From: a virus
Taxonomy: Duplodnaviria; Caudoviricetes
Reading direction: 5' to 3' (one strand)
Length of the DNA stretch: 25,844 nucleotides
IMG/VR virus record: IMGVR_UViG_3300016471_001133
Span: 1-25,844 of that record
The position numbers and the translations under genes were made by a program. Positions 5,276 to 24,586 of the stretch are shown piece by piece (position 1 is the stretch's first letter; every line of letters begins with the position of its first letter). Below the pieces are notes generated by a model. That model saw only the letters and a program-made list of their open reading frames with translations, searched no databases and was not told the DNA's origin.

Positions 5276-5363
5276 TCAAACGGGCGTCGCGTTGACGTGC
5301 TGAGCAGACTTGACGCCCGTGCCACGGTATGGGCTCGGTAACACGACACGCAAGGAGGCAAAG

Positions 5364-6800
5364 ATGACGACGACACGATCCGGGCTCACGGTTGATGCTG
5401 ACTTTTCTCAGCTGATTGAGCCGCTTGACAAAGCAGAGCTGGCCCAGCTGGAAGCAAACATTGTCGAGCACGGTAGCGCTCGCGACCCTTTGGTTGCATG
5501 GCGAATTGCCCCTAAAGGTATTTCTGAATATGCGGAACAGGCGGCACTTGATGGCTCACAACTACAGGCCGCGACGGACGATGAAATTCTCGAGGCTGCC
5601 ACACAGTCGGCGGCCGACTGCGGAAGCCGTCGCCCGTACCCTGACTGCCGAATTGCCGGTCGTACCCAGCACTGGGTTCTGGTCGAGGTAACTGGACACA
5701 TTGACGGCGACGACTGCAAGTACGGGTCATGGCGTGATTTCGTGTGGCACTGCGCGTACACCTGCGAGCCATGCTTTGACGACACCGATCTGATTTTGAT
5801 CGACGGCCACAACAGGCTGGAGATTTGCACGCGACTCAACCTGCCCTACGAGGTAGTCGAGGTTGCGTTTCAAGACCGGGACGCCGCTGCCCTTTGGATC
5901 GAAGAGAACCAAGTCGGGCGGCGTAACCTCAGCGACGATCAACGGAGCGTTATTGCGGACAGCATCCGCGACAGACGCAGCCGTGCTTCTGTGGTCGCGG
6001 CAGCTGCAAAGGCGAGGCAGGCAAAGATTGCCGGCTCTGTTGAGGACAACGCGTCCTCGACAAAGAAAGACGATGGCAAGAAGGGTCGCACGCGCGCTGC
6101 GGTCGCCGAAGAGCTGAAGGTGCCAGAGCGAAAGCTTCGGGCCGTAGCCGAAGTGAAGAAGACCGACGCCGGCAAAGATCTTTTGAAGCAGGTTCGCAAG
6201 GGCGAGATCACGCTGGCCGAGGCTAGGCGGCAGGTGAAAAAGGCCGAGGTCGTTGCCAAGCTCGAGGACGTTTCTGCCCGCGAGGCCAAGGCGCTGGCCG
6301 GGCAGTACGACGTGATCGTCATCGACCCGCCGTGGCCGATGGAGAAGATTGAGCGTGACGTGACGCCAGAGCAGGTGGCGTTTGAATACCCCACCATGCA
6401 GGAGGACGAGCTGGCTGCGATGCAGATGCCGGCTGCCGACGACTGCCACGTCTGGGTTTGGACGACCCACAAGTTTCTACCGATGTGCCTCCGGCTACTT
6501 GACGCTTGGGGCCTGAAGTACGTCTGCACATTCGTCTGGCACAAGCCAGGCGGATTCCAGCCGTTCGGACTGCCTCAATACAACTGCGAGTTCGCCGTCT
6601 ACGCCAGGCGTGGAACGCCGCAGTTCATTGACACCAAGGCGTTTCCAGTTTGCTTTGACGCGCCGCGCGGAAAGCACAGCGAAAAGCCAGAGGCTTTCTA
6701 CGACGTTGTTAGGCGTGTAACGGCTGGCAGGCGGATCGACATTTTTAATCGTCGAGCACTTGAAGGGTTCGACGTTTGGGGCAAGGAGGCCGACGAGTGA
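5364..6800 (+). CDS. ParB-like domain fused to an MT-A70-family N6-adenine methyltransferase
   Basis: AAGGAGG RBS. ParB-like LEANIVEHG..RDPL...LIDGHNRLEIC...NQVGRRNL, then MT-A70 motifs YDVIVIDPPW, VWVWTT, FVWHK, HSEKPEAFY and IDIFNR. Confidence 0.85.
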   Translation: MTTTRSGLTVDADFSQLIEPLDKAELAQLEANIVEHGSARDPLVAWRIAPKGISEYAEQAALDGSQLQAATDDEILEAATQSAADCGSRRPYPDCRIAGRTQHWVLVEVTGHIDGDDCKYGSWRDFVWHCAYTCEPCFDDTDLILIDGHNRLEICTRLNLPYEVVEVAFQDRDAAALWIEENQVGRRNLSDDQRSVIADSIRDRRSRASVVAAAAKARQAKIAGSVEDNASSTKKDDGKKGRTRAAVAEELKVPERKLRAVAEVKKTDAGKDLLKQVRKGEITLAEARRQVKKAEVVAKLEDVSAREAKALAGQYDVIVIDPPWPMEKIERDVTPEQVAFEYPTMQEDELAAMQMPAADDCHVWVWTTHKFLPMCLRLLDAWGLKYVCTFVWHKPGGFQPFGLPQYNCEFAVYARRGTPQFIDTKAFPVCFDAPRGKHSEKPEAFYDVVRRVTAGRRIDIFNRRALEGFDVWGKEADE

Positions 6801-7358: not shown

Positions 7359-8213
7359 GTGGCCGGTGAATGGATTCCCATCGACTGCAACCTCGGCACG
7401 AAGCCCGAGGTGCTAGAGCTGGTGGACGAGACTGGCGAACCTGTTGAGGTCGTCGTCTATCGTCTCATCCAGTTGTGGTCGTGGGCGTCCATGAACACCG
7501 CTGACGGGACGATCCGCACCACACCGGCGCGGCTCGCAGCGGTGGCAGGAGGTGACGAAGCGTTTTGGCTCGCTGTTGAGCGGGTCGGCTGGGTGTCGTT
7601 TTTGAACGATACCGTCGTCATCCGGGGCTGGGAGAGGCGTTTTTCCCGGGCCGCAAAGGCGCGTGCGGAAAACGCGCGACGGGCGTGCGCTTATCGTGCG
7701 CGAAAAGCGCGACCACAGGAGAGGACAGGAGAGGAGAGTACAGAAGAAGAAATACCGGCTGCGCCGGTTCCCACGACCGAGGCGGCTACGCCGCCTCGCT
7801 CGCGGGCGAAGCCTGGCGTTTCGTGGTCGGCTGACGCCGGGTGGGACGGCATCACGGACGCTGACCGCTCCGAGTGGGCCGCGGCGTTCCCTGGGGCGGT
7901 GCTCGATCAGGAGCTCGCGAAGGCGACCGCCTGGCTGCGGGCGAACCCGAAGCGGTGCGGCAAGCGGAACTGGCGTCGGTTCCTTGTCGGCTGGCTGCAG
8001 CGTTGCCAGGACAAGGGCGGCACGAACCGCGAGCCAGGGAACCGGCCGACCGGGCCGCCGCCGGTTGAGGCCGCGAAGCGTCGGTACTACCGCTCGGATG
8101 CGAATCGCAGCATGACCGACGCGGAGTACGCGGCGTGGCAACGCGACCGCAACTCCGGTGGCGTGGTCGCCGCGCTTGCATCAGGGTTCAGACTCAAGGA
8201 GGAGATCACATGA
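7359..8213 (+). CDS. Phage replication initiator-like protein
   Basis: GTG start with AGGAGG RBS. N-terminal WIPIDCNLGTKPEV...YRLIQLWSWA helix domain, charged linker, C-terminal ELAKATAWL..NP...NWRRFLVGWLQR domain typical of phage initiators. Confidence 0.7.
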   Translation: MAGEWIPIDCNLGTKPEVLELVDETGEPVEVVVYRLIQLWSWASMNTADGTIRTTPARLAAVAGGDEAFWLAVERVGWVSFLNDTVVIRGWERRFSRAAKARAENARRACAYRARKARPQERTGEESTEEEIPAAPVPTTEAATPPRSRAKPGVSWSADAGWDGITDADRSEWAAAFPGAVLDQELAKATAWLRANPKRCGKRNWRRFLVGWLQRCQDKGGTNREPGNRPTGPPPVEAAKRRYYRSDANRSMTDAEYAAWQRDRNSGGVVAALASGFRLKEEIT

Positions 8214-8461
8214 CCGCCATCGCCCTACCGCCGATCACGGCCAAGCAGCGTCGCGTGTGGGAGTTCATCAGGAACCACAACGCGGCCACGCGCACCGGCA
8301 CCGGCTACCGCGAGATCTGTGCCGCTATGGGTTGGCGTTCGCCCAACGCGTCATACGGGCACTGCGTGGCGCTTCGCCGCAAGGGCTGGATCACGTTTGA
8401 GCCGTCGCGGCCGAACACGATTGTTCCGACGGCTGAATCGCTGGAGGTGTGCGATGACTGA
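8210..8461 (+). CDS. LexA-like DNA-binding domain protein (no peptidase domain)
   Basis: ITAKQRRVWEFIR...YREICAAMGWRSPNASYGHCVALRRKGWI matches the LexA N-terminal wHTH; only 83 aa. Confidence 0.8.
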   Translation: MTAIALPPITAKQRRVWEFIRNHNAATRTGTGYREICAAMGWRSPNASYGHCVALRRKGWITFEPSRPNTIVPTAESLEVCDD

Positions 8462-8672
8462 CCGGGACGTAACCGCGATCCACGCCGCGTGTCGTCGCCG
8501 CTCGTGGGAGGACTCGACCGACGACGCGTCGCGGCTGGTGCTCGAGCGTGCCGGCGACTGCATCACGCACTTGAGGAAAACGGTGCGAGACATGCGGCGC
8601 CGGCTGGTCCGTCAGGCCGCGCACCTCGAGCGGGCCGAGCTCGCCAACGAGCAGCGGGGGAACACGAAATGA
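8454..8672 (+). CDS. Hypothetical coiled-coil protein
   Basis: GGAGGT RBS; overlaps both neighbours. Confidence 0.6.
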   Translation: MTDRDVTAIHAACRRRSWEDSTDDASRLVLERAGDCITHLRKTVRDMRRRLVRQAAHLERAELANEQRGNTK

Positions 8673-8893
8673 CGATTTATCAGCGACACATAACGTCGAA
8701 GAAGTGGCAGCGGTTCAAGCGTCGCGTGAAGTCATCGCGTGGCGAGTGCTGTGAACGCTGCAGGGCCGCCGGCGTAGGGCTTGAGGTTCATCACGTGACA
8801 TACGAGCGGCTCGGCAACGAACTGCCCGAAGACGTGCGGGTGTTGTGCCACGAGTGCCACGTCGCGGCCGACGCGGCGAGGAGGTCGGCATGA
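8669..8893 (+). CDS. Small HNH-family endonuclease
   Basis: CERC...LEVHHVTY...EDVRVLCHECH: two CxxC pairs and an HNH-like core, with Asp at the Asn position. Confidence 0.8.
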   Translation: MTIYQRHITSKKWQRFKRRVKSSRGECCERCRAAGVGLEVHHVTYERLGNELPEDVRVLCHECHVAADAARRSA

Positions 8894-9132
8894 CCAGCGA
8901 CCTGGCACTGATCGCACTTGGAGCAATCACGACCGTGGCGACGTTCGCCCTCGGCGTGGCGGTGGGACGGCAATCACGGAGGACTGCACATGACGACGGC
9001 AACCAAGCGGCGACGAACTACTGGCGGCGTGACGCTCTCAACCGCGTCGCTCAAGGCGGCGCTGGCGGCGATCAAGCCGGCGATCTCGACCCGGCCGACG
9101 AAGCCGGCCCTATCCGGCGCTCTGCTCGCTGA
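8890..9132 (+). CDS. Small membrane protein overlapping the start of dnaN
   Basis: ATGA coupling and GAGGAGGT RBS; hydrophobic N-terminus LALIALGAITTVATFALGVAVG; 143-nt overlap with dnaN. Confidence 0.5.
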   Translation: MTSDLALIALGAITTVATFALGVAVGRQSRRTAHDDGNQAATNYWRRDALNRVAQGGAGGDQAGDLDPADEAGPIRRSAR

Positions 9133-10120
9133 CGGCACGATCACGGCGACCGATCTGGAAATCCAGATCTCGGCCGAGATCGACTACCACGGCGAGCCGC
9201 TCCTTCTCCCGCACGCCAGGCTGGCGGCGATCCTGCAGACGGCGATCGGGCCGGAGGTCTCGCTGGCCGTCGAGGGCTCCGTATGCGTCGTGAGCGTCGG
9301 ACGCGGCGTCTGGCGGCTTCCGGTTGAACAGGCGGCCGAATTCCCGGCCTGGACCCCGGAGGGCGTCAAATCGCTTGTACGGCTTCCAGGCGACCAATTC
9401 GTCCGGGCGGTCGCCGCGACCCACTACGCGACGGACACCGAGTCGTCGCGGTACGCCCTCGGTGCGGTGCTGCTCTCGGTGAGCCGCGAGGACGGCCGTG
9501 CCAATTTCGTGGCGACCGATGGCCGGCGGATGTCGGTGGTGGTCTGCGAGCACGGGCAGGACACCGACGGCGGCGAGCCGCTGGTCCCGGGCCACGTGCT
9601 GCAGGCGATCGCCAGGTTGTCGTCGTCGCACGCCGACAGCATCGAGGTGCAGCTGGAGGCGTCGGATCGCGAGCTTGTCGCCACGATGCCGGGAGCGACG
9701 GTCCATGCCCGGCTGATCGAGGGCAAGTTCCCGCGATGGCGCGATGTCGTCGTGATCGACCGGCCCGGCGAGCAGGTCTGCGTGATCAACCGCGAGGAGC
9801 TCAGGCACGCCACGACTAGCGCGGCGATCGTGACGACCGAGCAGAGCAAGGGCGTGGAGTACCGGTTCGAGGCGGACGGCCTGCACGTGCATGGCAAGAG
9901 TTCTGAGGCCGGCGAGTCGTCGATCACGGCCGATGTCGTCACGGGCGTGGAGCGGCCGGTCACGGTCAAGCTCGATCCGCGGTTTGTGGCGGACTGGCTC
10001 CGCGGGCTGTCAAGCGAGAACGACCCGGATGTGTCGGTCCATGTCGTCGATGCGGCGTCGGCGACGGTGCTAACGTGCGACGACTGCACGGGCGTGATCA
10101 TGCCTCTGGCGGCCGACTGA
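8990..10120 (+). CDS. dnaN: DNA polymerase III beta sliding clamp
   Basis: 376 aa; motifs KPALSGALL, ITATDLEI, EFP, SRYALGAVLL, FVATDGRRM, RLIEGKFPRWRDV and C-terminal VIMPL. Confidence 0.9.
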   Translation: MTTATKRRRTTGGVTLSTASLKAALAAIKPAISTRPTKPALSGALLADGTITATDLEIQISAEIDYHGEPLLLPHARLAAILQTAIGPEVSLAVEGSVCVVSVGRGVWRLPVEQAAEFPAWTPEGVKSLVRLPGDQFVRAVAATHYATDTESSRYALGAVLLSVSREDGRANFVATDGRRMSVVVCEHGQDTDGGEPLVPGHVLQAIARLSSSHADSIEVQLEASDRELVATMPGATVHARLIEGKFPRWRDVVVIDRPGEQVCVINREELRHATTSAAIVTTEQSKGVEYRFEADGLHVHGKSSEAGESSITADVVTGVERPVTVKLDPRFVADWLRGLSSENDPDVSVHVVDAASATVLTCDDCTGVIMPLAAD

Positions 10121-10121
10121 C

Positions 10122-10604
10122 ATGGATGACAATTCGAAAGAGCGTCTGGCGGCTCTTGTGGACGCCGGGCACAGCATGCGAGAGATCGCCGAGATACTCG
10201 GAGTGTCTGTGCAGCATGCGGCCCGCGCGTTCGCGGTCGCCGGCGTGGCGATGCCGATGCCGCCGAGCCGCGGGATCGTGTACCGCACGCGGGTGCGTGA
10301 CGTGTCGAAGCTGCTCCACCTGTGGCAAGAGACGACGCTGTCGCAGGCGGACGTGGCCCAGCGGTTGAACGTGACGCGTGGTGCTGTCTCTCGGGCGGTG
10401 CGGTACTACGGGCTCGAGCCGCGACCCGGAGACGTGCCGGACAAGCCGCCGGACTCGGAGATCGAAGACTCGGCGGGCGATCTGCGATTGGCTCCGCACG
10501 TCGAGGCGGCGGCCGAGCTGATTCGCCGGCAGTGGTCGCCGGAGGAGGAGTACCTGAGGCGAGTCACGATGGTTCAGCCGCTGACGATCGGAGAGTTGCC
10601 ATGA
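10122..10604 (+). CDS. Double-HTH DNA-binding protein
   Basis: GHSMREIAEILGVSVQHA and LSQADVAQRLNVTRGAVSRAV are two HTH-like segments. Confidence 0.7.
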   Translation: MDDNSKERLAALVDAGHSMREIAEILGVSVQHAARAFAVAGVAMPMPPSRGIVYRTRVRDVSKLLHLWQETTLSQADVAQRLNVTRGAVSRAVRYYGLEPRPGDVPDKPPDSEIEDSAGDLRLAPHVEAAAELIRRQWSPEEEYLRRVTMVQPLTIGELP

Positions 10605-10744
10605 GCGTGACGCTGCTCTTCGTCGTGTCGCTGATCTACTGGGGCGTCGCCATCGACCAGTGGATAAAGGGTTCACCGGCCGGGTTCGTCGTGTGGGCGA
10701 GCTACGGCGCGGCGAACTGGGGGCTCATGTGGCTGACGAGATAA
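10601..10744 (+). CDS. Small membrane protein
   Basis: ATGA overlap; MSVTLLFVVSLIYWGVAIDQWIKG...; two hydrophobic segments. Confidence 0.6.
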   Translation: MSVTLLFVVSLIYWGVAIDQWIKGSPAGFVVWASYGAANWGLMWLTR

Positions 10745-10756
10745 CGGAGGCTGATC

Positions 10757-10978
10757 ATGGAATCCTTGGCTCTCGCCGCCGCGCTCGTCATGCTGTCGAT
10801 CTGTGGCGTGTCGCTCGCGGCCCTGGTCGCCGGGATATTCCGCCGGCCGGTGCTGTGCTGGCTGTTCGGTGGATTGTCCGTCTTGGCCGGCGGTTGGCTG
10901 TGGGTGACGGTGCCGCACCTCTGGCCTCTGGCGGCGTGGTGCGTGGCGGTCGGCGTATATGCGGTGTGGCGGGTGTAG
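10757..10978 (+). CDS. Small membrane protein (about three TM segments)
   Basis: GGAGG RBS; almost entirely hydrophobic; its TAG stop overlaps the first attC core. Confidence 0.65.
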   Translation: MESLALAAALVMLSICGVSLAALVAGIFRRPVLCWLFGGLSVLAGGWLWVTVPHLWPLAAWCVAVGVYAVWRV

Positions 10979-11064
10979 AACGCCAGCGATCAGCGGCCCG
11001 CGACCTATGACCATGAACAAACCAACCGACACTCTCGCGGGTCAGCTGCATCGCGTGGTTAGCC
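10975..11064 (-). repeat. attC site A (90 bp)
   Basis: Minus strand: GGCTAAC-CACGC-GAT[G]CAGCTG[A]CCCGCGA...TCGCGGG-CCGCTG-ATC-GCTGGC-GTTCTAC. 5/6-nt spacers and two extrahelical bases, as in canonical attC. Confidence 0.85.
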
Positions 11065-11507
11065 TGCGGATTGTGCCGATTGACCACAAAGGGGCGAACG
11101 CTTTTGTCCAGAAGCACCACCGGCACCACAAGCCCACGGTGGGCCATAAGTTCAGCCTCGCCATTGCGGACGATACTGACGCCATTCGCGGCGTGGCGAT
11201 TGTGGGCCGCCCGGTGGCTCGGATGCTGGACGATGGATGGACGCTGGAGGTGAACCGCTGCTGCACGGACGGCGTTCGCAACGGGTGTTCGATGCTCTAC
11301 GGCCGGGCGTGGCAAGTGGCGAAGGCTCTCGGCTACCGGAAACTCATCACCTACACGCTGCCTGCGGAAGGCGGGTCGAGCCTTCGCGGAGCTGGGTGGA
11401 AGTGCATCGGGGAACGTGGTGGCGGCAACTGGAACGTTAAGTCGCGGCCACGGGTGGACACCGACCTTTTGCTCCAGGGACAGAAGCTACTTTGGGAAGC
11501 AGGCTAA
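11007..11507 (+). CDS. XF1762-family-like protein (GNAT fold, related to Mom-type base modifiers), cassette A
   Basis: ANAFVQKHHRHH, GVAIVGRPVARMLDDG.TLEVNR, NGCSMLYG...KLITYT...GSSLRGAGW. The start lies inside attC A, and the TAA stop ends at the crossover point. Confidence 0.7.
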   Translation: MTMNKPTDTLAGQLHRVVSLRIVPIDHKGANAFVQKHHRHHKPTVGHKFSLAIADDTDAIRGVAIVGRPVARMLDDGWTLEVNRCCTDGVRNGCSMLYGRAWQVAKALGYRKLITYTLPAEGGSSLRGAGWKCIGERGGGNWNVKSRPRVDTDLLLQGQKLLWEAG

Positions 11508-11592
11508 CACGGAAGATGAGCGGCATCGCCACGGAGGACGATGATATGACGAAAGACGCTGCGGCGATGTCCGCTCCATCGGCTGGTTCTGC
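11502..11592 (-). repeat. attC site B (91 bp)
   Basis: Plus strand: GGCTAAC-ACGGAA-GAT-GAGCGG-CATCGCC...GGCGATG[T]CCGCTC[C]ATC-GGCTG-GTTCTGC. Perfect stem with a compensatory G/C swap relative to sites A and D. Confidence 0.85.
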
Positions 11593-11623
11593 TGCGTCGG
11601 CGTGGGAGATGTGTAATGCCTGA
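11546..11623 (+). CDS. attC-encoded leader peptide coupled to the cassette B gene
   Basis: GGAGG at 11533-11537 in the attC loop; MTKDAAAMSAPSAGSAASAWEMCNA*; its end overlaps ATG 11616. Confidence 0.4.
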   Translation: MTKDAAAMSAPSAGSAASAWEMCNA

Positions 11624-12464
11624 ACACCACTTCCTGAATCTCGGCGCTGGCGTCCAATCGACGGCGCTCTACCTCTTGAGCATCGACGGCGACGAGCCGG
11701 AAGTGCCGCGATTTGACGCCGCCATCTTCGCTGACACGCAGGAGGAGCCGGATGAGGTCTATCGGCACCTTGAATGGCTGGAGAAGCAGGGCGGGCCGCC
11801 GATTGTGCGGGTCACGGAGGGAAAGTTAGGAGACGCATTAGACAGTCGAAAAAACGATGGGCATTACACTGCCATTCCGGCGTACACGCTCCACCCTGTG
11901 ACCGGACAGCGAGCAATGGTTCAGAGACAATGCACAGGCGACTTTAAGGTTAAGCCACTAGAACGAAAAATGAGGGAACTGCTCGGAGTTGTCCCTGGCC
12001 GACCTATTCCGAAGGAGCAAATACTCCACCAATACATGGGGCTGTCGTTCGATGAGCCAAAACGAGTCATTCGCGTAAAGGAGCGATTCCTCGCCAAGCC
12101 GTCGAACTGGAAGGTGCATTTCCCGCTATGGGAAATGCAGTGGGATCGCGGTGACTGCAAGGCATACCTGCGCGACCGGATGCCATATGAGGTGCCGCGC
12201 TCGGCGTGCGTGTTCTGCCCGTTCAAGTCAGACGAGGAGTGGCGTCGGCTGCGTGACAGCGACCCGAAGGGGTGGGCGCGGGCCGTTGAAATAGATCACG
12301 CTTGCCGCATTGGAAAGATGGACGCTCACCGCTTCTTGCACAAAGCGTGCTTGCCTCTGGACGAGGTTGACCTACGGTCCGCCGACGAGAAGAGCGGGCA
12401 GATGAATATTTTCAAGCACCTGCGCGGGTTTCAAGACGAGTGCGAAGGGTATTGTGGGAACTAG
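11616..12464 (+). CDS. PP-loop / PAPS-reductase-like adenine nucleotide alpha-hydrolase, cassette B
   Basis: FLNLGAGVQSTAL (SxGxxS-type loop), AIFADTQEEP, RQCTGDFKVKP, RSACVFCPF and a terminal ECEGYCG Cys cluster. Confidence 0.75.
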   Translation: MPEHHFLNLGAGVQSTALYLLSIDGDEPEVPRFDAAIFADTQEEPDEVYRHLEWLEKQGGPPIVRVTEGKLGDALDSRKNDGHYTAIPAYTLHPVTGQRAMVQRQCTGDFKVKPLERKMRELLGVVPGRPIPKEQILHQYMGLSFDEPKRVIRVKERFLAKPSNWKVHFPLWEMQWDRGDCKAYLRDRMPYEVPRSACVFCPFKSDEEWRRLRDSDPKGWARAVEIDHACRIGKMDAHRFLHKACLPLDEVDLRSADEKSGQMNIFKHLRGFQDECEGYCGN

Positions 12465-12466
12465 CA

Positions 12467-12557
12467 GCAGAACACGGAAGATCAGCGGCGGCGAGCCACG
12501 GACTATGAGCAAACCAACCGACGATAACGAGCCGTCTGCTGCATCGCGTGGGTCTGG
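12467..12557 (-). repeat. attC site C (91 bp, core mutated)
   Basis: Plus strand: GCAGAAC-ACGGAA-GAT-CAGCGG-CGGC...GCCG[T]CTGCTG[C]ATC-GCGTG-GGTCTGG, with GTT changed to GGT. Confidence 0.8.
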
Positions 12558-12762
12558 CGGGCCTGACCTTCGCGGCCCTGCCGTGATTGTTACCGGGTCA
12601 GTGATCGGAGGATTCACGTTCATCGGGCCGTTTCCAACAATCGAACACGCTGCGGAGTGGCACGCCAAGCGGTCGCTTCCCGGTGTGCTGGGCCTCCCGG
12701 CGGATGCGATTGTCTTGCTGGAGTCGCCGGATCGGCACGCTGTAGTGAGGAACGACGATTAG
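12505..12762 (+). CDS. Hypothetical protein, cassette C
   Basis: ATG in the attC C loop; MSKPTDDNEPSAASRGS...VIVTGSVIGGFTFIGPFPTIEHAAEW; TAG immediately before the next core. Confidence 0.65.
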   Translation: MSKPTDDNEPSAASRGSGGPDLRGPAVIVTGSVIGGFTFIGPFPTIEHAAEWHAKRSLPGVLGLPADAIVLLESPDRHAVVRNDD

Positions 12763-12852
12763 CCAGAACGCCAGCGATCAGCGGCCCGCGACCTATGACC
12801 ATGAACAAACCAACCGACGCTATCGCGGGTCCGCTGCATCGCGTGGTTATGC
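12763..12852 (-). repeat. attC site D (90 bp), near-identical to site A
   Basis: AGAACGCCAGCGATCAGCGGCCCGCGACCTATGACCATGAACAAACCAACCGAC is shared exactly with site A; only three differences up to GTTA. Confidence 0.85.
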
Positions 12853-13376
12853 GCTTTTGCTACGCGGACCCGCCCTACCTTGGCTGCGGCAAAAGGCTCT
12901 ACGGCAAGATGCACGCCGAGGCCGCCGAGTGGGACGATCCCGAGCGGCATCGCCATCTCATCGGCCGGCTCTGTGACGAATACCCGGACGGCTGGGCCAT
13001 GAGCCTGCACACGCCGAGCCTGCGGACGATCCTGCCGATGTGCCCCGAGGACTGCCGAGTGGCGGCATGGGTGAAGCCGTTCGCGGTGTTCAAGCCCAAC
13101 GTCACGGTGGCCTACGCATGGGAGCCGGTGATATTCCGGGGCGGCAGGCCGCGACCGCGAACGATGCCGACCGTGCGGGATTGGGTGTTGGAGTGCATCA
13201 CGCTGAAGAAGGGCTGCCCAGGGGCGAAGCCGGAAGGTTTCACGCTCTGGCTACTGGATTTACTCAACGTGGAACCGCAAGACGAGTTCGTTGATATGTT
13301 CCCCGGAAGCGGCATGGTCAGCGAGGCGGTCGAACGGTGGCGTCGGTCGCCACGGTTGCCGCTTCAGTACGCATAA
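12795..13376 (+). CDS. DNA amino-methyltransferase (N6A/N4C), cassette D
   Basis: YADPPY catalytic motif near the N-terminus, AWVK, WEPV, AKPEGF, and a C-terminal SAM motif VDMFPGSG. Alternative starts at 12801 and 12849. Confidence 0.8.
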   Translation: MTMNKPTDAIAGPLHRVVMRFCYADPPYLGCGKRLYGKMHAEAAEWDDPERHRHLIGRLCDEYPDGWAMSLHTPSLRTILPMCPEDCRVAAWVKPFAVFKPNVTVAYAWEPVIFRGGRPRPRTMPTVRDWVLECITLKKGCPGAKPEGFTLWLLDLLNVEPQDEFVDMFPGSGMVSEAVERWRRSPRLPLQYA

Positions 13377-13389
13377 CCAGTGCTTATCC
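13371..13389 (-). other. attI-like simple recombination site
   Basis: Minus strand: GGATAAG-CACTG-GTTATGC, an inverted L-like box, a 5-bp spacer and a GTT core, with no attC stem. Confidence 0.5.
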
Positions 13390-13399
13390 GGTCCGCACA

Positions 13400-13459
13400 G
13401 CGATCCCGGCGGGCATCGACCGCACATATAAAGCGGTGACGAGCACCCGCCGGGATCGC
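13400..13459. repeat. 14-bp perfect inverted repeat with a nested hairpin
   Basis: GCGATCCCGGCGGG (13400-13413) / CCCGCCGGGATCGC (13446-13459), enclosing ACCGC-N9-GCGGT. Confidence 0.7.
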
Positions 13460-13475
13460 CAACACAGGAGCAACC

Positions 13476-13697
13476 ATGACAGGCGAGGTAGATGAGATGT
13501 CCGCTGCATCCGCTGGTTCTGCGAGCAGTGGGAAAGACGCCGACCGACAGGCGCTGGCCGATTCATCCGGCCCAACAAAGCCTGCGCGGCTTTATTTTGT
13601 GCCGCCGCCGGAGATGCTGGTGGATGCGATCCATGACCCAGTCGGCCCGACGAGCGGACGACGGATTGCCAGCAAGAGATTCGGGACGAAGAAGTAG
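13476..13697 (+). CDS. Hypothetical protein, probable relic cassette
   Basis: AGGAG RBS; the N-terminal MSAASAGS segment is encoded by an attC half-site at 13500-13522. Confidence 0.5.
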   Translation: MTGEVDEMSAASAGSASSGKDADRQALADSSGPTKPARLYFVPPPEMLVDAIHDPVGPTSGRRIASKRFGTKK

Positions 13698-13706
13698 GCA
13701 GCACCC

Positions 13707-13802
13707 ATGTCCGACATCGTCTCTCGCCTGCGTCGGTGGAGTCACGCGGTCGATGAACCGGACGAAGTGAGACAGGTGCTGCGGCAAACTGTCGGAAACT
13801 GA
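13707..13802 (+). CDS. Short or truncated hypothetical protein
   Basis: MSDIVSRLRRWSHAVDEPDEVRQVLRQTVGN*; fills the gap between genes. Confidence 0.35.
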   Translation: MSDIVSRLRRWSHAVDEPDEVRQVLRQTVGN

Positions 13803-13806
13803 CATC

Positions 13807-14013
13807 ATGCCGCTAGTTATCGTCCAGTACCGCCTGCCAGACGAAGAGCACGAATACCTCGCGGCGATGCAAGGCGTCGCGGCGCTCGCGGTGTTGCATG
13901 ACATCGACCAGCATTGCCGCAGCCTCGTGAAGCACGGCACGCCAAGCGAAGAGACCGAGGCGCTTGCCGAGCACATCCGGCAACTGATTGCCGAGGCGGA
14001 CGTAACGCTGTGA
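13807..14013 (+). CDS. Hypothetical protein
   Basis: MPLVIVQYRLPDEEHEYLAAMQG...; coding-like. Confidence 0.65.
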   Translation: MPLVIVQYRLPDEEHEYLAAMQGVAALAVLHDIDQHCRSLVKHGTPSEETEALAEHIRQLIAEADVTL

Positions 14014-14039
14014 TTTGACACGGCGGCGATCATGCCGCC

Positions 14040-14202
14040 ATGCCAACCGCCACGCTCCGCTTCCGCCATCGCGCACCTCGACGAGCATCTCGCCGAGGCG
14101 ATCAAGGGCGGCGAGCTCGGCCACGATGTCGAGACGGCGTACCAGGAGCTACGCGAGTGGCTTCGGACCCACTGCGCTTCATACGGGCTCGATCTGCCAT
14201 GA
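14040..14202 (+). pseudogene. Frameshifted paralog-like remnant of the 13807 gene
   Basis: MPTATLRF in one frame, then SAIAHLDEHLAEAIKGG...YQELREWLR...DLP* in the +1 frame, ending in an ATGA overlap with rusA. Confidence 0.45.
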
Positions 14203-14597
14203 CCGTCACGCTGTCCATCCCGGGTGATCCGGTGCCGCAGCCTCGCCCGCGGGTGTCCACCGCCGGCGGATTCGCACGGGCGTACGTGCCGAAGTCGCAT
14301 CCGATCCACGCCTATCGCCAGGCGATCGCACTGGCGGCGAGCGTCGCCGGGCTCCGCGAGCAATCGCGGCCCGTGAGCGTCATCATCGACGCGGTGTTCG
14401 CGCGGCCGAAGTCGCACTTGACGAAGTCCGGCGTCAAGCCATCGGCACCAGCGCTGCCGCGTCCCGACGTGGACAACCTGGGCAAGGCGGTGCTTGATGC
14501 GTTGCAAGAGGTGATGGGCGACGACACACACGTAGCCCGGCTTGTGGTCGAGAAATCGTGGGGCACCGAAGGACGCACGACGGTACGGATCACATGA
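14199..14597 (+). CDS. rusA: RusA-family Holliday junction resolvase
   Basis: IPGDPVPQPRPR...RPDVDNLGKAVLDAL...GDDTHVARL carries the RusA catalytic Asp pattern. Confidence 0.9.
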   Translation: MTVTLSIPGDPVPQPRPRVSTAGGFARAYVPKSHPIHAYRQAIALAASVAGLREQSRPVSVIIDAVFARPKSHLTKSGVKPSAPALPRPDVDNLGKAVLDALQEVMGDDTHVARLVVEKSWGTEGRTTVRIT

Positions 14598-15643
14598 ATC
14601 TGCACGTGAACATGGTGGCGTACAACGAAGAGCGCCACATCGAGGAGGCGATTGACTCGATTCTGTCGCAGTCGTTTCGTGACTTCGAGCTCGTCGTTCA
14701 CGACAACTGCTCGACCGATCGCACGGTCGAGATCTGCGAGCGGATCGCCAGCGGCGACCGGCGGCTGCGAATCAACCGTGGCCGATTCAACGTGGGCGCG
14801 GTGCTGCAGCAGCTGCGGGTTCATTGCAACTGGGACGCCGACTACGTCGCGTTTCGCTCGGCCAATGACGTGATGCACCCGGACTACGTCGCGGAGGCGA
14901 TGGAGCTTCTGTCATCCAATCCCGATGTTGGCCTGGCGTACAGTCACGGCTGTGATTTCGCGGGCGACATCGCGACGGCGACTCCGACGCCGGATGAATT
15001 TTGCATCGACACTCGCGGTCTCTCGCGATCGCAGGCATGCGCCGAGGTGATGGGCCGATACTGTTCGCCGCATCCGCTGTGGGGAGTGTGGCGACGCGGC
15101 GTCCGCGAGATGTGCAGGGCGTGCCAGTTCTCCTACGGCTCCGATCACGTGCTGATTGCCGAGGCGGCCCTCTACGGCCATGTCGCCGCGACTCCCGGCA
15201 GGCTGGACTATCGGCGACAAGCGGCCCGCGACGGGCGGGAAGTGCTCCGCGACAACGCCACGCACCACTCGTGCGAAGAAAGCGTCCGCGGGTGCGACCT
15301 CGGTAGCGTGTTCTCGTCGCCGAAAATTCTGATGCCGTTCGTCGATCTGGCGTACAGCCACATCGAGATGTTGAGCATGGCTCGCATTTCCGACGACGAG
15401 CGCGTGGCACTGATGGACGCGGCGCTTGTGATATTCCGCGCGAGGTTCGGCGAGCGGCTCGCGATGGAGGCGCGCGTGTTCGCGGAGTGGCTGAGCACGG
15501 CGGCGGATGCCGTGTCCGAGGCGAGTCAATCGAGCCGCGTGCTGATCTGCACGTGGCGGACCAAGGTGGCTCGCGAGATCGGGAAGTTGCGGACGCTGAA
15601 TTTGCCGACCGAAGCGTGCGACAGGATGCTCGCGCAATGCTGA
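14594..15643 (+). CDS. Glycosyltransferase family 2
   Basis: VAYNEERHIEEAIDSILSQSFRDFELVVHDNCSTDRT and YVAFRSANDVMHPDY. Confidence 0.9.
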   Translation: MNLHVNMVAYNEERHIEEAIDSILSQSFRDFELVVHDNCSTDRTVEICERIASGDRRLRINRGRFNVGAVLQQLRVHCNWDADYVAFRSANDVMHPDYVAEAMELLSSNPDVGLAYSHGCDFAGDIATATPTPDEFCIDTRGLSRSQACAEVMGRYCSPHPLWGVWRRGVREMCRACQFSYGSDHVLIAEAALYGHVAATPGRLDYRRQAARDGREVLRDNATHHSCEESVRGCDLGSVFSSPKILMPFVDLAYSHIEMLSMARISDDERVALMDAALVIFRARFGERLAMEARVFAEWLSTAADAVSEASQSSRVLICTWRTKVAREIGKLRTLNLPTEACDRMLAQC

Positions 15644-21784: not shown

Positions 21785-22861
21785 ATGCCGAACGTCATCA
21801 GAATCAAGCGTCGCGCATCGTCCGGTGGCGCAGGAGCGCCGAGCTCGCTCGCCAACGCCGAACTCGCGTTCAATGAAAACTCGAACATCCTCTACTACGG
21901 TACAGGCACCGGCGGTGCTTCTGGCTCGGCCACTAGCGTGATCGCGATCGCGGGATCTGGTGCGTTCGTCTCAATCACCGAGGTCCGCGCGGCAAACACG
22001 GTCCTCGCTGGCCCGACGAGCGGTGCCGCAGCTGCGCCGACGTTCCGGGCTCTGACATCCGACGACATCCCTTCACTGTCGGGCGTGTACATCCCGATGA
22101 CCGGCACTGCGACGCCGACCGGGACGTACACGTTCAGCGGCACGGTCAACGTCACGGGCACGTTTCAGCTGGGCTCGACGACCGTCACCTCCTCGGCCGC
22201 CGAACTGAACCTCGTGGATGGCTCGATCGCGAACACGGTCGTGAACTCGAAGGCGGTGATCTACGGCTCGGCCGGGCAGATCGCGGCGACGACGCTCACC
22301 ACCAGCGGCAACGCGACGGTCGGTGGGAACCTCACGGTCACGGGCGACCTCACCGTGAACGGGACGGTCACGACGGTGAACAGCACGACCGTCACTGTGG
22401 ACGACAAGAACATCGAGCTCGGCAGCGTCTACAACCCGACGGACACGACCGCCGACGGTGGCGGCATCACGCTGCGTGGCACGACCGACAAGACGATCAT
22501 TTGGTACAACGCGACCGACTCGTGGACGTTCAATCAGAACATCGAACTAACCGCCACCTACGCCTACCGAATCGACGGCGTGTCGGTTCTGAGCAAGACT
22601 ACGCTGGGCTCCACGGTCGTGTCGTCATCGCTCACGAGCGTGGGCACGATCGGCACCGGCGTCTGGCAGGGCACGGCGGTGGGCGTCGCCTACGGCGGCA
22701 CTGGGCTGACCTCCGCACCGCAGGGCTCGGTGCTCGTGGCAAACACGGCGAACACGTACACCGCGCTTGACGGCGGCGGTACGAACGATGGACTGCTCGC
22801 CTACACGGCATCAAGCGACACGATCGCGTGGGCGACGAGCATCGACGGCGGGACGTTCTGA
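21785..22861 (+). CDS. Tail fibre protein with an Mtd_N-like N-terminus
   Basis: IRIKRR...APSSLANAELAFN...LYYG; Thr/Gly-rich beta repeats (GNLTVTGDLTVNGT); terminal IDGGTF. Confidence 0.75.
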   Translation: MPNVIRIKRRASSGGAGAPSSLANAELAFNENSNILYYGTGTGGASGSATSVIAIAGSGAFVSITEVRAANTVLAGPTSGAAAAPTFRALTSDDIPSLSGVYIPMTGTATPTGTYTFSGTVNVTGTFQLGSTTVTSSAAELNLVDGSIANTVVNSKAVIYGSAGQIAATTLTTSGNATVGGNLTVTGDLTVNGTVTTVNSTTVTVDDKNIELGSVYNPTDTTADGGGITLRGTTDKTIIWYNATDSWTFNQNIELTATYAYRIDGVSVLSKTTLGSTVVSSSLTSVGTIGTGVWQGTAVGVAYGGTGLTSAPQGSVLVANTANTYTALDGGGTNDGLLAYTASSDTIAWATSIDGGTF

Positions 22862-22864
22862 CGC

Positions 22865-24586
22865 ATGCCCACGACAGTCAAGATTCGCCGCAGCGGCACC
22901 GCGTCGGCAACGCCGTCGGCGCTTGAGCACGGCGAGATCGCGATCAACTACGCCGACGGGAAGGTCTTCTGGAAAAATGCGAGCGACGTGATCACGTCGT
23001 TCACGTTCCAGAGTTACGCCCTCGCGTCGCACACGCACTCGATCTCGGATGTGACGGGGCTGCAAACCGCCCTCGATGGCAAGGCGGCAAGCAGTCATAC
23101 GCATTCGATCTCGGACGTGACCGGCTTGCAGACAGCGCTCGATGGGAAGGCGGCTTCCAGCCACACGCATTCGATTTCCGATGTGACCGGGTTACAGACG
23201 GCCCTCGACGGCAAGGCGTCGTCGTCGCACACGCATGCAGCGTCGGACATCACATCCGGCACGCTGGACATCGCCCGTATCCCGACGGGCTCGTCTTCGA
23301 GCACCGTGTGCATCGGAAACGACGCGAGGCTCTCCGACTCCCGCGCCCCGACGGGCAGTGCTGGCGGCTCGCTCGCAGGCACATACCCGAATCCGACGAT
23401 CGCCGCGAGCGGTGTGTCCGCAGCGTCATACGGCTCGGCAACGCAGGTCGCCACGTTCACCGTCGGCGCTGACGGCCGCCTCACTGCGGCGTCGAACACG
23501 ACGATCGCCATCGCGGCCAGTGCGGTGACATCCGGCACGCTGGACGCCGCCCGACTGCCTCTCGCGACGACGGGTGCTGCCGGGGCGATGATCGTTGGCA
23601 CGGGTCTTGGTGTCTCGTCTGGCACGGTGAGCGTGACTTACGGGACTAGCAACACCTCTGCCTGTCGCGGCGATGACAGTCGCTTGAGTGACACCCGCAC
23701 GCCGACCGATGGCAGCGTGACGACAGCGAAAATCGCCAACGACGCCGTCACCTACGCGAAAATCCAAAACGTCAGCGCCACCGACCGCCTGCTCGGTCGC
23801 TCGTCATCCGGTGCAGGCGACGTGGAGGAGATCACCTGTACGGCGTTCGGCCGATCGCTTATTGACGACGCCGACGCCGCAGCGGCACGCACCACTCTGA
23901 GCGTGCAGCCGACGGCGAGTCCTACATTCACGGGCAGCGTTGGGATCGGCAATGCTGCTGGGGGAAACTCTAGGCTGAATATAAACGGAACGTATACGTC
24001 ATCAACCGTTGACTGCCTTCCAGTGCATTGCAACGGGACTATACCCAGCACTACCGTTTCCCCCGGAGAGGCGCAGATATTCCGCAGCGCTGTTTCAACG
24101 GAAGCAGCATCTTTTACGCTTCCTAATTGGACGCACTACTACGCCAACCAAGGAACCATCGGAGCGGGGTCAAGCGTTACAAATCAGTTTGGCTTTCGCG
24201 CCGCTGGCGGGATCATTGGCGCGACCAACAACTACGGTTTCTACAGCGATATCGCCAGCGGCAGCGGACGGTGGAACTTCTACGCCAACGGGACGGCGCA
24301 AAACTATTTTGGCGGGCAAGTCCTCGTCACCGCAGGCAGCGTGTCAGCGTGCAGCGTCGCACCGAGCGGCGATCCGAATACGGGGCTGGTGTTCCCGTCG
24401 GCGGACGTTGTGACGTTGATTACAAATGGCAGCGAGCGGATGCGCGTCAAATCAACTGGTTCAGTTCGATTTCTACCTCTCGCGTCGGACCCTGCGTCTG
24501 GAAACGAAGCCGGAGATGTTTACTACAACTCAACCACAAACAAACTCAAGGTCTACAACGGCACCTCTTGGGTAGACCTGCACTAG
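22865..24586 (+). CDS. Tail fibre protein with an Mtd_N-like N-terminus and HxH repeats
   Basis: [32 protein letters not shown]; [18 protein letters not shown] repeats; C-terminal [20 protein letters not shown]. Confidence 0.8.
23027..23236 (+). repeat. 66-bp (22-aa) tandem repeat, three copies plus a partial copy
   Basis: HTH motifs start at 23030, 23096, 23162 and 23228. The amino-acid unit is essentially identical while the codons have diverged. Confidence 0.9.

Follow-up and report, generated by a model that had tools for sequence, protein, structure and literature searches.

Integrons have been treated as a bacterial device for gene capture, and their recombination sites also carry translation signals: attI1 contains ORF-11, and short ORFs and structure in attC sites affect the translation of cassettes. 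In phages, 17 CALINs were reported among 10,705 genomes of isolated phages (Qi, Rajabal, Ghaly, Tetu and Gillings 2023, Front Microbiol, PMC9892861), of which those of TJE1 and PH101 have the typical bacterial layout, and the same study already put forward the idea that phages tap integron cassettes against host restriction (PMC9892861). Here, we present an analysis of a viral DNA of 25,844 nucleotides (the window). This DNA is a prophage of freshwater planctomycete bacteria, a host link that consists of MAG contigs and a sequence family and not of a known phage-host pair, and it carries at least two DNA-modification genes among four accessory genes. Like the phage CALINs described by Qi et al., it has an attC array without intI and DNA methyltransferases, putatively here, in the cargo; unlike in the CALINs described there, the attC bottom strand is the one that carries the genes, throughout an entire lineage of uncultured planctomycete phages, and the site precedes its gene, often with the start signals of that gene (PMC9892861). 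We found no published description of this reversed, start-bearing attC layout in the literature. Altogether, our findings make it probable that positions 10979-13518 hold four integron cassettes and a truncated fifth site of an attC family linked to IntI of Pirellulales, with the genes on the bottom strand, and that the array is rearranged by the IntI of the host.

Four imperfect hairpin sites of 82-83 nt, measured from AAC to GTT, lie within positions 10979-12848 (sites A-D; Table 1). On the + strand, they have the layout AAC-N6-GAT(C/G)AGC, stem, loop, stem, [T]-6 nt-[C]-ATC-N5-GTT. The initial annotation had placed its four sites correctly, and the formula that it gave for the minus strand is the reverse complement of this layout; its site length of 90-91 bp includes flanks, and a fifth, right-half site (site E) lies just past the end of its array extent (10975..13389). 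R1, a covariance model for which 26 short sites from other viral contigs and none from the window were used, matched all of sites A-D on the + strand with 39-57 bits; the next best match was 11.7 bits. Site D is the best-formed site of the window and is 96% identical to site A. The triplets that pair as R box are AAC and GTT in sites A, B, and D, and AAC and GGT in site C, which is the AAC-to-ACC change previously read on the minus strand; the compensatory swap previously noted in site B (C:G to G:C) is likewise present. The stem of site C is weakened, with one mismatch relative to a near-identical copy in locus L006 (94% over 98 nt) in which the stem is intact, and site C folds no better than its shuffles (z +0.3). 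Site E reaches only 8.3 bits under R1 (E 4.7) and, for lack of a left arm, is unable to adopt the attC fold. The decay of sites C (GGT, weak stem) and E (half site) indicates that part of the window array may be frozen. A search of all families of Rfam 15 with E up to 10 gave no match in the window.

Table 1. Features of the array and its flanks in the window
Feature	Position	Strand	Details
73-aa predicted membrane ORF	10757..10978	+	upstream of array; TAG stop abuts AAC of site A
attC site A	10979..11060	+ (bottom strand on +)	82 nt; R1 45.0 bits, E 1.3e-9
Cassette gene 1, Mom-like / XF1762-family protein	11055..11507	+	phrog_1384 E 4e-38; NCBIfam XF1762_fam E 6.6e-64
attC site B	11506..11588	+	83 nt; R1 42.9 bits
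Cassette gene 2, PAPS-reductase-like protein, 282 aa	11616..12464	+	phrog_424 E 2.5e-38
attC site C	12471..12553	+	83 nt, decayed; R1 39.1 bits
Cassette gene 3, 85-aa ORF	12505..12762	+	ATG start in loop of site C
attC site D	12767..12848	+	82 nt; R1 57.1 bits, E 8.8e-13; DNA fold z -3.1
Cassette gene 4, putative DNA methyltransferase	12849..13376	+	motifs only
Orphan AAC + CAGTGCTTATCCGGTCCG	13375..13395	+	array-end junction; no L box after
Hairpin, perfect 14-bp arms (13400-13413 / 13446-13459)	13398..13461	+	backbone element
Site E, right part of long attC	13462..13518	+	loop with AGGAG-N6-ATG, right arm, N5, GTT
73-aa ORF	13476..13697	+	starts at ATG within site E; no attC after

The site family has attC geometry, as initially proposed, with 5/6-nt spacers and two extrahelical bases: when 127 viral loci (768 kb) were scanned for structure, the strict geometry returned 82 sites, and each variant with an altered spacer or extra base returned 0-4. 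Across the family, the sites have N6/N5 spacers and, on the + strand, T and C bulges in the 3' arm; two size classes of 41-50 nt and 77-84 nt have a common base, and the length varies at the tip of the hairpin. In 103 R1 matches, 99.1% of the pair cells are paired (22-45% in slid controls), 76 cells are doubly changed, and for the three R pairs, the paired fraction of cells is 99.7%. Compensatory double changes occur in seven of 13 modelled pairs, all within the 10-pair L-box stem, which none of 500 shuffles equalled. The bottom-like strand is more stable by little (-0.40 kcal/mol, 49/76 sites). The criteria for bulges and spacers follow Nivina et al. (2016, NAR, PMC5027507). Compared with the canonical sites attCaadA7 and VCR2 treated there, the sites have an L box of GAT/ATC (or variants) instead of GTT/AAC, the base bulged beside it is C rather than the G of studied attC sites, and the extension of the R box often deviates from RYYY/RRRY (PMC5027507). 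Because of the bulged C, recognition by the studied IntI proteins cannot be assumed. None of the R'' boxes in the window (GGCTAAC, GCAGAAC, CCAGAAC, and GCATAAC) fully fits the consensus RYYYAAC / GTTRRRY, and deviations such as GCAGAAC are frequent in the family; among the IntI-linked host sites, those of genome G127 fit (GCCTAAC) and those of G123 do not fully fit. Two other types of element were ruled out, i.e., MITE-like or REP-like elements, which would not yield complementary ends flanking each gene, and plain transcription terminators, since T runs are absent from the sites and the AAC/GTT boxes, the spacer asymmetry, and the bulges would be left unexplained.

The complementary core ends initially annotated for each cassette are present in the window, i.e., GTTAGCCTGC/GCAGGCTAAC, GTTCTGCTGC/GCAGCAGAAC, GGTCTGGC/GCCAGAAC (7/8), and GTTATGCG/CGCATAAC, and the complementarity extends past the triplets by 7, 7, 5, and 5 bp in cassettes 1-4, respectively. 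The same holds for the family, in which end sequences differ between cassettes while each pair is complementary over 4-8 bp beyond AAC/GTT: at least 4 bp are complementary in 41 of 52 cassettes, compared with 21% of random pairs, and the mean complementary run is 4.44 in the 52 cassettes versus 1.93 within single sites and 2.00 in random pairs.

We found no integron integrase in the window (PF00589, E up to 1), and none of five related contigs, three of which are at least 92% complete, has a TIGR02249 match. Neither intI, attI, and Pc together nor a recognisable attI is present beside the phage array. As it is without intI, the array is a CALIN and not a complete integron. In host DNA, by comparison, 20 of 121 sampled Pirellulales genomes encode an IntI above the cut-off. 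In contig C155 of genome G123, R1 matches of 53.8, 45.0, and 29.4 bits lie 1.2-2.6 kb upstream of an IntI gene (TIGR02249, 404.7 bits; cut-off, 265), and this contig has GATCAGCGGC and ATT-type sites resembling the phage ones; weaker R1 matches lie beside IntI in genomes G121 and G127. Sites of this geometry are found on the intI-upstream side in seven of 11 integrase loci, with a constant orientation to intI; the other four have no site on that side, and there was one stray match on the opposite side. Because the R1 family recurs directly upstream of IntI genes, the window sites are genuine planctomycete-type attC sites. As in the sedentary chromosomal integrons of Pirellulales, the bottom strand of the phage sites reads AAC-N6-L box...[T]-6 nt-[C]-L box-N5-GTT, and the cassette ends are complementary; unlike the phage array, the host arrays adjoin intI and have their genes on the top strand, pointing away from intI. 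Given that the phage has no IntI of its own, a host enzyme likely rearranges the array.

The four cassette ORFs had been described as antisense to attC. Consistently, PHROG matches among phage cassettes fall on the attC bottom-like strand in 19 of 51 cassettes and on the other strand in 0 of 51, while the host genes are on the opposite strand: in IntI-linked host cassettes, Pfam matches are on the top strand in 7/22 and on the other strand in 2/22, both of them transposases, and the gene-bearing strand of host arrays, which points away from intI, reads AAC-N5...N6-GTT. All cassette genes of the window are on the bottom-like strand, rather than on the top strand with attC downstream as in the typical layout. 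Thus, the polarity of the phage cassettes is reversed relative to that of the host cassettes. Among the 44 long phage sites, 34 contain an ATG and 28 an SD-like motif as well; 31 open frames of at least 60 codons enter the cassette, of which 26 keep register, and in 26 of the 44 sites, the loop has an SD-like motif and an ATG reading into the downstream gene. None of the 24 short sites (41-nt class) has an ATG. As with ORF-11 of attI1 and the attC signals, a recombination site here likely gives an RBS and a start codon to a cassette gene; however, the known signals are located in attI or, on the top strand, in the attC of the cassette before, and those described here are in the cassette's own attC on the bottom strand.

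Based on this layout, we propose that, in an infected planctomycete, the host IntI would bind to the + (coding) strand in its folded form, cutting the 5' AAC between A and C. Excised as a circle and reinserted at a different attC, each mobile unit would comprise an attC and the gene that follows it. Transcription of the cassettes would be part of that of the early (replication) operon of the phage, with expression by read-through. The attC loop would then lie in the 5' leader of the mRNA, where in many family members it likely provides the RBS and the start codon. In the window, such loop-borne start signals likely act from site B (for a short upstream frame), the truncated site E, and possibly site C.

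The cargo consists of a Mom-like protein, a PAPS-reductase-like protein, an ORF that, like gene 4, has no Pfam, PHROG, or NCBIfam match (gene 3), and a putative methyltransferase, which suggests a swappable toolkit for DNA modification and anti-restriction. The start of gene 1 is uncertain (GTG at 11055, or ATG at 11007 or 11013 within the loop of site A), and its TAA stop is inside the R box GCAGGCTAAC. In the loop of site B, GGAGGA-N7-ATG (11546) opens a 25-codon frame that ends at 11623 and overlaps the ATG of gene 2, which has its own GGGAG-N8-ATG; a homologue of gene 2 in L063 (79% identical) sits between other sites. Gene 4 is putatively assigned as a DNA methyltransferase from DPPY near the N-terminus and FPGSG near the C-terminus. 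Its ATG directly follows GTT, with another in-frame ATG at 12801 in the loop, and its TAA stop lies within CGCATAAC; a copy in L133 (93% identical) lies behind a D-type site. The 73-aa ORF upstream of site A, for which there was also no Pfam, PHROG, or NCBIfam match, is probably not a cassette because no matching GTT-end is seen upstream of it.

The same layout is found in dozens of viral contigs with varying sets of cassettes, at the end of the early operon beside dnaN or SSB genes, and the relative L007 is wholly without positions 10741-13394 of the window. Related phages carry differing cassettes between like sites, with homology breaking exactly at the 5' AAC. In 33 site pairs with only the upstream gene in common, core identity is 0.59 compared with a background of 0.60; in nine pairs with only the downstream gene in common, mean core identity is 0.82, and by eye, the core is the same in five, partly the same in one, and different in three. 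The initial idea that the phage plugs in accessory genes is thereby supported indirectly, in that relatives vary in their cassettes and break at the 5' AAC (the 33 pairs), and the integrase would be the agent. In the three downstream-gene pairs with differing cores, however, the break is at or near GTT, and among 58 pairs with at least 97% identity over the rest of the core, only 20 have identical N6 spacers; neither is expected of a single AA|C crossover. For the cassettes of the window itself, only L063 (79%) and L133 (93%) are homologous among the loci compared, too few and too diverged for placing breakpoints at base level. Contigs from four DNA runs over positions 10000-14700 contained no excision or circular junction, although contigs cannot show rare forms; apparent joints in these contigs were other family sites, with flanks of their own, partly aligned to sites A, C, D, or E and not cassette deletions. 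Site A with its flanks had no match in 50,697 phage records, and a 5.7-kb region matched known isolated phages only over the Mom-like gene (66-72% identity).

The breaks at both site edges and the uncoupling of the N6 spacer from the core are also what one would see if the attC-derived sites were now mainly linkers and mRNA leaders, shuffled by homologous recombination between sites of 40-80 nt, e.g., by a RecT-like protein during co-infection. The window encodes such a protein (phrog_561, E 8e-52), the phages are without IntI, and because the transcripts contain the sites in coding-strand sense and an SD-like motif and an in-frame ATG are present in 26 of the 44 long ones, selection at the RNA level could keep the stems. 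However, this scenario leaves unexplained the cassette-specific complementary ends of 4-8 bp (41/52) as well as the kept AAC/GTT, the 6/5 spacer asymmetry, and both bulges, and the short 41-nt sites are conserved best although they have no ATG (0/24). We consider it unlikely.

Alternatively, a recombinase other than IntI could act on the sites, either from the phage (an ordinary tyrosine integrase or an unrecognised protein) or from the host. Of the five related contigs, four encode ordinary tyrosine recombinases (three exceed the Pfam cut-off) and none encodes IntI; however, these genes lie far from the arrays, none is in the window, and the sites share a family with those beside bona fide IntI genes. 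Moreover, to our knowledge, single-strand hairpin sites with bulged bases are, among tyrosine recombinases, specific to IntI, and we regard this option as very improbable. A weak recombinase match in contig C165 of genome G006 (L150) has no bearing because that contig differs from the L140 record. We give a slightly lower probability still to the reading that the array is a passive piece of a host integron that hitch-hikes as a frozen CALIN after illegitimate recombination with no role for the phage. Such routes of capture for phage CALINs are discussed by Qi et al. (PMC9892861), and sites C and E are degraded. Against this argue that the genes oppose the direction of host cassettes and are of phage type (PHROG matches in 19/51; Mom-like, PAPS-reductase-like, and phrog_924 family), that dozens of viral contigs show this layout with varying cassettes, that the loops gained start signals in register, and that none of 22 host cassettes has a non-transposase family match on the bottom-like strand.

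Returning to rearrangement by the host IntI, we give slightly less than even odds to the broader idea that planctomycete phages keep a pool of reversed cassettes and use the host enzyme to swap anti-defence and DNA-modification genes of the early operon, with the hairpin serving both as recombination site and as mRNA leader with RBS and start codon, i.e., a self-contained unit of site plus start plus gene that needs no Pc. Reports of attC clusters in phages have so far described rare cargo with the usual layout; in the present case, a host attC family with reversed genes is carried across an entire lineage. If the host IntI acts on these sites, phages would be using an enzyme of the host to reshuffle genes for counter-defence, and the orientation rule for cassette genes, i.e., away from the integrase, would reflect the source of expression rather than the chemistry. 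The system is testable, with Pirellulales IntI, defined sites of 41 nt and 82 nt, and a strand-specific prediction.

A scan for promoters and terminators over positions 8000-15000, which was not tuned to planctomycetes, found a single promoter-like site, which is on the minus strand; terminator-like matches were no more frequent than by chance. At the end of the array, AACCAGTNNTTNTCCGG was considered as an attI-like element and set aside because it occurs only in the window (and duplicates) and L006, too few to judge; the array in L006 ends in a string similar to CAGTGCTTATCCGGTCCG of the window. In L007, the hairpin that follows this junction in the window comes right after the upstream backbone gene.

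The window carries four imperfect hairpin sites (A to D) and a truncated fifth site (E). On the + strand, the 5′ half of sites A to D consists of AAC, N6, GAT(C/G)AGC, a stem, and a loop of ~30 nt, while the 3′ half consists of the returning arm of the stem, in which a T is bulged, followed by six bases, a bulged C, ATC, N5, and GTT. Sites A and D are 96% identical; in site C, GTT is replaced by GGT, the stem is weakened, and the fold is not better than that of shuffles. The C:G to G:C swap in site B and the cassette-end complements described in the initial annotation are all present in the sequence. Scanning strictly for the complete geometry, we found 82 sites in 127 viral loci (768 kb in total, fetched by the left-half pattern), and altered geometries (bulged base changed, bulge on the other arm, or either spacer length changed) gave 0 to 4 sites in the same 768 kb. 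Arrays contain up to six or seven sites, which fall into two size classes of 41 to 50 nt and 77 to 84 nt. R1, a covariance model trained on 26 short sites, none of which is from the window, scored sites D, A, B, and C on the + strand at 57.1, 45.0, 42.9, and 39.1 bits, respectively; its next best match in the window had 11.7 bits, and site E had 8.3 bits. Altogether, R1 finds 103 sites over 42 sources. In their alignment, which was fitted to the R1 model and favours pairing, 99.1% of the pair cells are paired, and compensatory double changes are present in seven of 13 modelled pairs (76 cells), all within the 10-pair L-box stem. None of 500 shuffles reached the observed level of covariation, and with a slid partner 22 to 45% were paired. 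Both the slid controls and, independently, the strict scan speak for a real site structure.

Coordinates of features in the window and in related loci
Feature	Location	Strand	Remark
496-aa protein	window 5310-6800	+	MT-A70 methyltransferase domain
dnaN	window 8918-10120	+	in early/replication block
Site A	window 10979-11060	+	imperfect hairpin
Site B	window 11506-11588	+	imperfect hairpin
Site C	window 12471-12553	+	imperfect hairpin
Site D	window 12767-12848	+	imperfect hairpin
Array-closing string	window 13375-13391
Hairpin with perfect 14-bp arms	window 13398-13461		at expected place of site E left arm
Site E	window 13462-13518	+	loop and right arm only
rusA	window 14040-14597	+	3′ of early block; tail genes further on
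Tail-fibre-like proteins	window 21785-22861 and 22865-24586	+	phage tail repeat (PTR) domains, Pfam E 6e-25
Same 14-bp-arm hairpin	L007 6578-6641		3′ of upstream backbone gene
Array-closing string	L006 11820-11836
phrog_924-group cassettes	L006 9842-10204; L078 5009-5236; L016 2601-2888		examples
Host array L184	G127:C3 2948766-2966000		Pirellulales genome

According to the account by Nivina et al. 2016 (PMC5027507), an attC bottom strand has 5′-AAC in its R box, with extrahelical bases located on the arm opposite; both features are present on the window + strand. Rfam gave no match for the sites. A scan for the short core with one genome per species found two MAG contigs, one of them labelled Pirellulales; this MAG has two integron integrase (IntI) genes above the TIGR02249 cut-off, and an integron integrase above this cut-off was found in 20 of the 121 Pirellulales genomes sampled. 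We analysed 11 integrase loci, with both flanks for nine genes and a stretch reaching or holding the gene for two more. Sites of phage-type geometry are located on the intI-upstream side at seven loci, and no such site was found on this side at the other four; a single stray match lies on the other side of one intI. In all seven site-bearing loci, the strand directed away from intI reads AAC-N5...N6-GTT. On one contig (G123:C155), three sites 1.2 to 2.6 kb from intI are of the same sequence types as in the phage (GATCAGCGGC and ATT types), and the phage-derived R1 scored them at 53.8, 45.0, and 29.4 bits. Because the bottom-strand features are present and the same geometry and types occur beside intI, we class the window sites as attC sites of the planctomycete type and their array as a CALIN, i.e., a cluster of attC sites lacking an integron integrase. 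The observation of a phage-borne cassette array is confirmed, and its structural interpretation as an integron cassette array is supported.

Two host arrays of one Pirellulales genome (L184 and L188) have insertion sequences inside cassettes, with transposases of the DDE_Tnp_1 and Y2_Tnp families; this genome has four TIGR02249 matches, of which three are above the cut-off.

The initial annotation also held that the four ORFs are antisense to attC. We compared the longest open frame on each strand of 51 phage cassettes with PHROG families (E 1e-5 or better) and obtained 19 matches on the bottom-like strand and none on the other. Among 22 host cassettes, seven top-strand frames had a Pfam match (HicA, DUF2442, DMP19, and others), while two bottom-strand frames had one, both of them transposases of insertion sequences. 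Therefore, the inverted polarity is real, with host genes being mainly on the top strand. The phage matches comprise the phrog_924 group (10), Mom-like (2) and PAPS-reductase-like (2) proteins, two other unnamed families, and single cases of a methyltransferase, an HNH endonuclease, and a phosphoesterase. In the window, the Mom-like gene encodes an XF1762-family protein (E 6.6e-64), the PAPS-reductase-like gene matches at E 2.5e-38, and the fourth cassette gene is called a putative methyltransferase by its motifs.

The phage cassette encountered most often codes for a small phrog_924/phrog_60/phrog_7704-group protein with a conserved C-terminus (...HWMPLP.PP..., terminating in TAGCCACAGAAC); it is present in several copies per array, beside many different sites. 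A 3.3-kb MAG contig (L139) has eight R1 matches, phage-type gene polarity, and a phosphoesterase cassette (phrog_547, E 1e-50) and probably represents a piece of phage DNA that was binned into the MAG.

Start signals appear to lie within the sites. Among 44 long sites with sufficient downstream sequence, 34 contain an ATG, which is preceded by an SD-like motif in 28; no ATG was found in 24 short sites. In the long sites, 31 ATGs open frames that cross the right arm, extend into the cassette, and span at least 60 codons, and 26 of these 31 frames share one register; an SD-like motif and such a frame occur together in 26 of the 44. Since GC-rich DNA favours long open frames, their length carries little weight by itself, and the case for these putative signals is based on the register, which is constant, and on the SD motif. 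In the window, GGAGGA-N7-ATG in site B opens a 25-codon frame overlapping the start of gene 2, AGGAG-N6-ATG in site E opens a 73-aa ORF, the in-frame ATGs of sites A and D lack an SD motif, the loop ATGs of sites B, C, and E are at 11546, 12505, and 13476, and gene 4 has an ATG directly 3′ of GTT.

Between neighbouring sites, the complementary run beyond GTT/AAC has a mean of 4.44 and is at least 4 in 41 of 52 cassettes, compared with means of 1.93 within single sites and 2.00 for random right-left pairs (21% at least 4). Such complementary ends are expected had each cassette closed on itself via the R box. If IntI cut at AA|C of the bottom strand, the mobile unit on the coding strand would be a site followed by its gene. 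A comparison of 78 sites with flanks, in which pairs are not independent, supports this unit, though not cleanly. In 33 pairs with only the upstream gene in common, core identity is 0.59 against a background of 0.60, and homology ends at AAC. In nine non-independent pairs with only the downstream gene in common, core identity averages 0.82; visual inspection showed the same core in five, a partly identical core in one, and different cores in three, where the break falls at GTT or close to it. Moreover, of 58 pairs in which the rest of the core is at least 97% identical, only 20 have identical N6 spacers. Homologous exchange within the conserved arms is a candidate source of both the second class of breakpoints and the loose N6 spacer, and the phage encodes a RecT-like gene.

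We infer that a host IntI acts on the phage array and that the cassette genes are expressed by read-through. No tyrosine recombinase was found in the window and no IntI in five related contigs, three of which are at least 92% complete; four of the five encode ordinary tyrosine recombinases, at a large distance from the arrays. Among 10,705 phage genomes, Qi et al. 2023 (PMC9892861) identified 17 CALINs, and they also report methyltransferase cassettes in phage CALINs and recombination of five of six phage sites by IntI1; by contrast with the window, the typical cassette layout is described there for two of the phages. We found no description of reversed cassettes with start signals in attC or of planctomycete phage arrays in open-access papers and preprints. 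Loot et al. (bioRxiv 10.1101/2022.09.11.507474) describe cassette insertion by IntI at positions other than att sites, through which a first cassette may have entered a phage.

Among the relatives, L005 (99.94% identity) is the window phage itself. Three sites with other cassettes occur in L006, whose DnaN is 44% identical; its copy of site C (94%) is flanked on each side by genes other than those in the window. In L007, whose DnaN is 59% identical, window 10741-13394 has no counterpart at all, and two sites of its own lie further on. In a 100%-complete relative, the array is again 3′ of dnaN and is 5′ of the portal gene; in another, it is 3′ of SSB and endonuclease VII genes. In site E, 18 nt and a perfect 14-bp hairpin stand in place of the left arm. 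In L007, a T run and then the first attC come after this hairpin, which resembles a terminator-like element belonging to the operon itself; in the window, the array seems to have been inserted upstream of it. The string closing the array is AAC-CAGTGC-TTATCCGG in the window and AAC-CAGTAA-TTCTCCGG in L006, the only two independent occurrences among 194 loci; it may represent a simple site resembling attI or one half of an attC.

The window is the entire IMG/VR provirus record (25.8 kb; completeness about 64%), and all its family-matched genes are on the + strand. The early/replication block also encodes a primase-polymerase, a RecT-like protein, an MT-A70 methylase, a replication initiator, a LexA-like protein, HNH proteins, and an HTH protein; the array lies between the HTH gene region and rusA. 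Terminase, portal, and capsid genes were not found in the window, consistent with the completeness of the record. The 496-aa protein, with its C-terminal MT-A70 domain and a weak mid-protein ParB-like nuclease match, is a predicted second DNA-modification gene product encoded outside the array. Glycosyltransferase and thioredoxin-like genes are located upstream of the tail-fibre-like genes.
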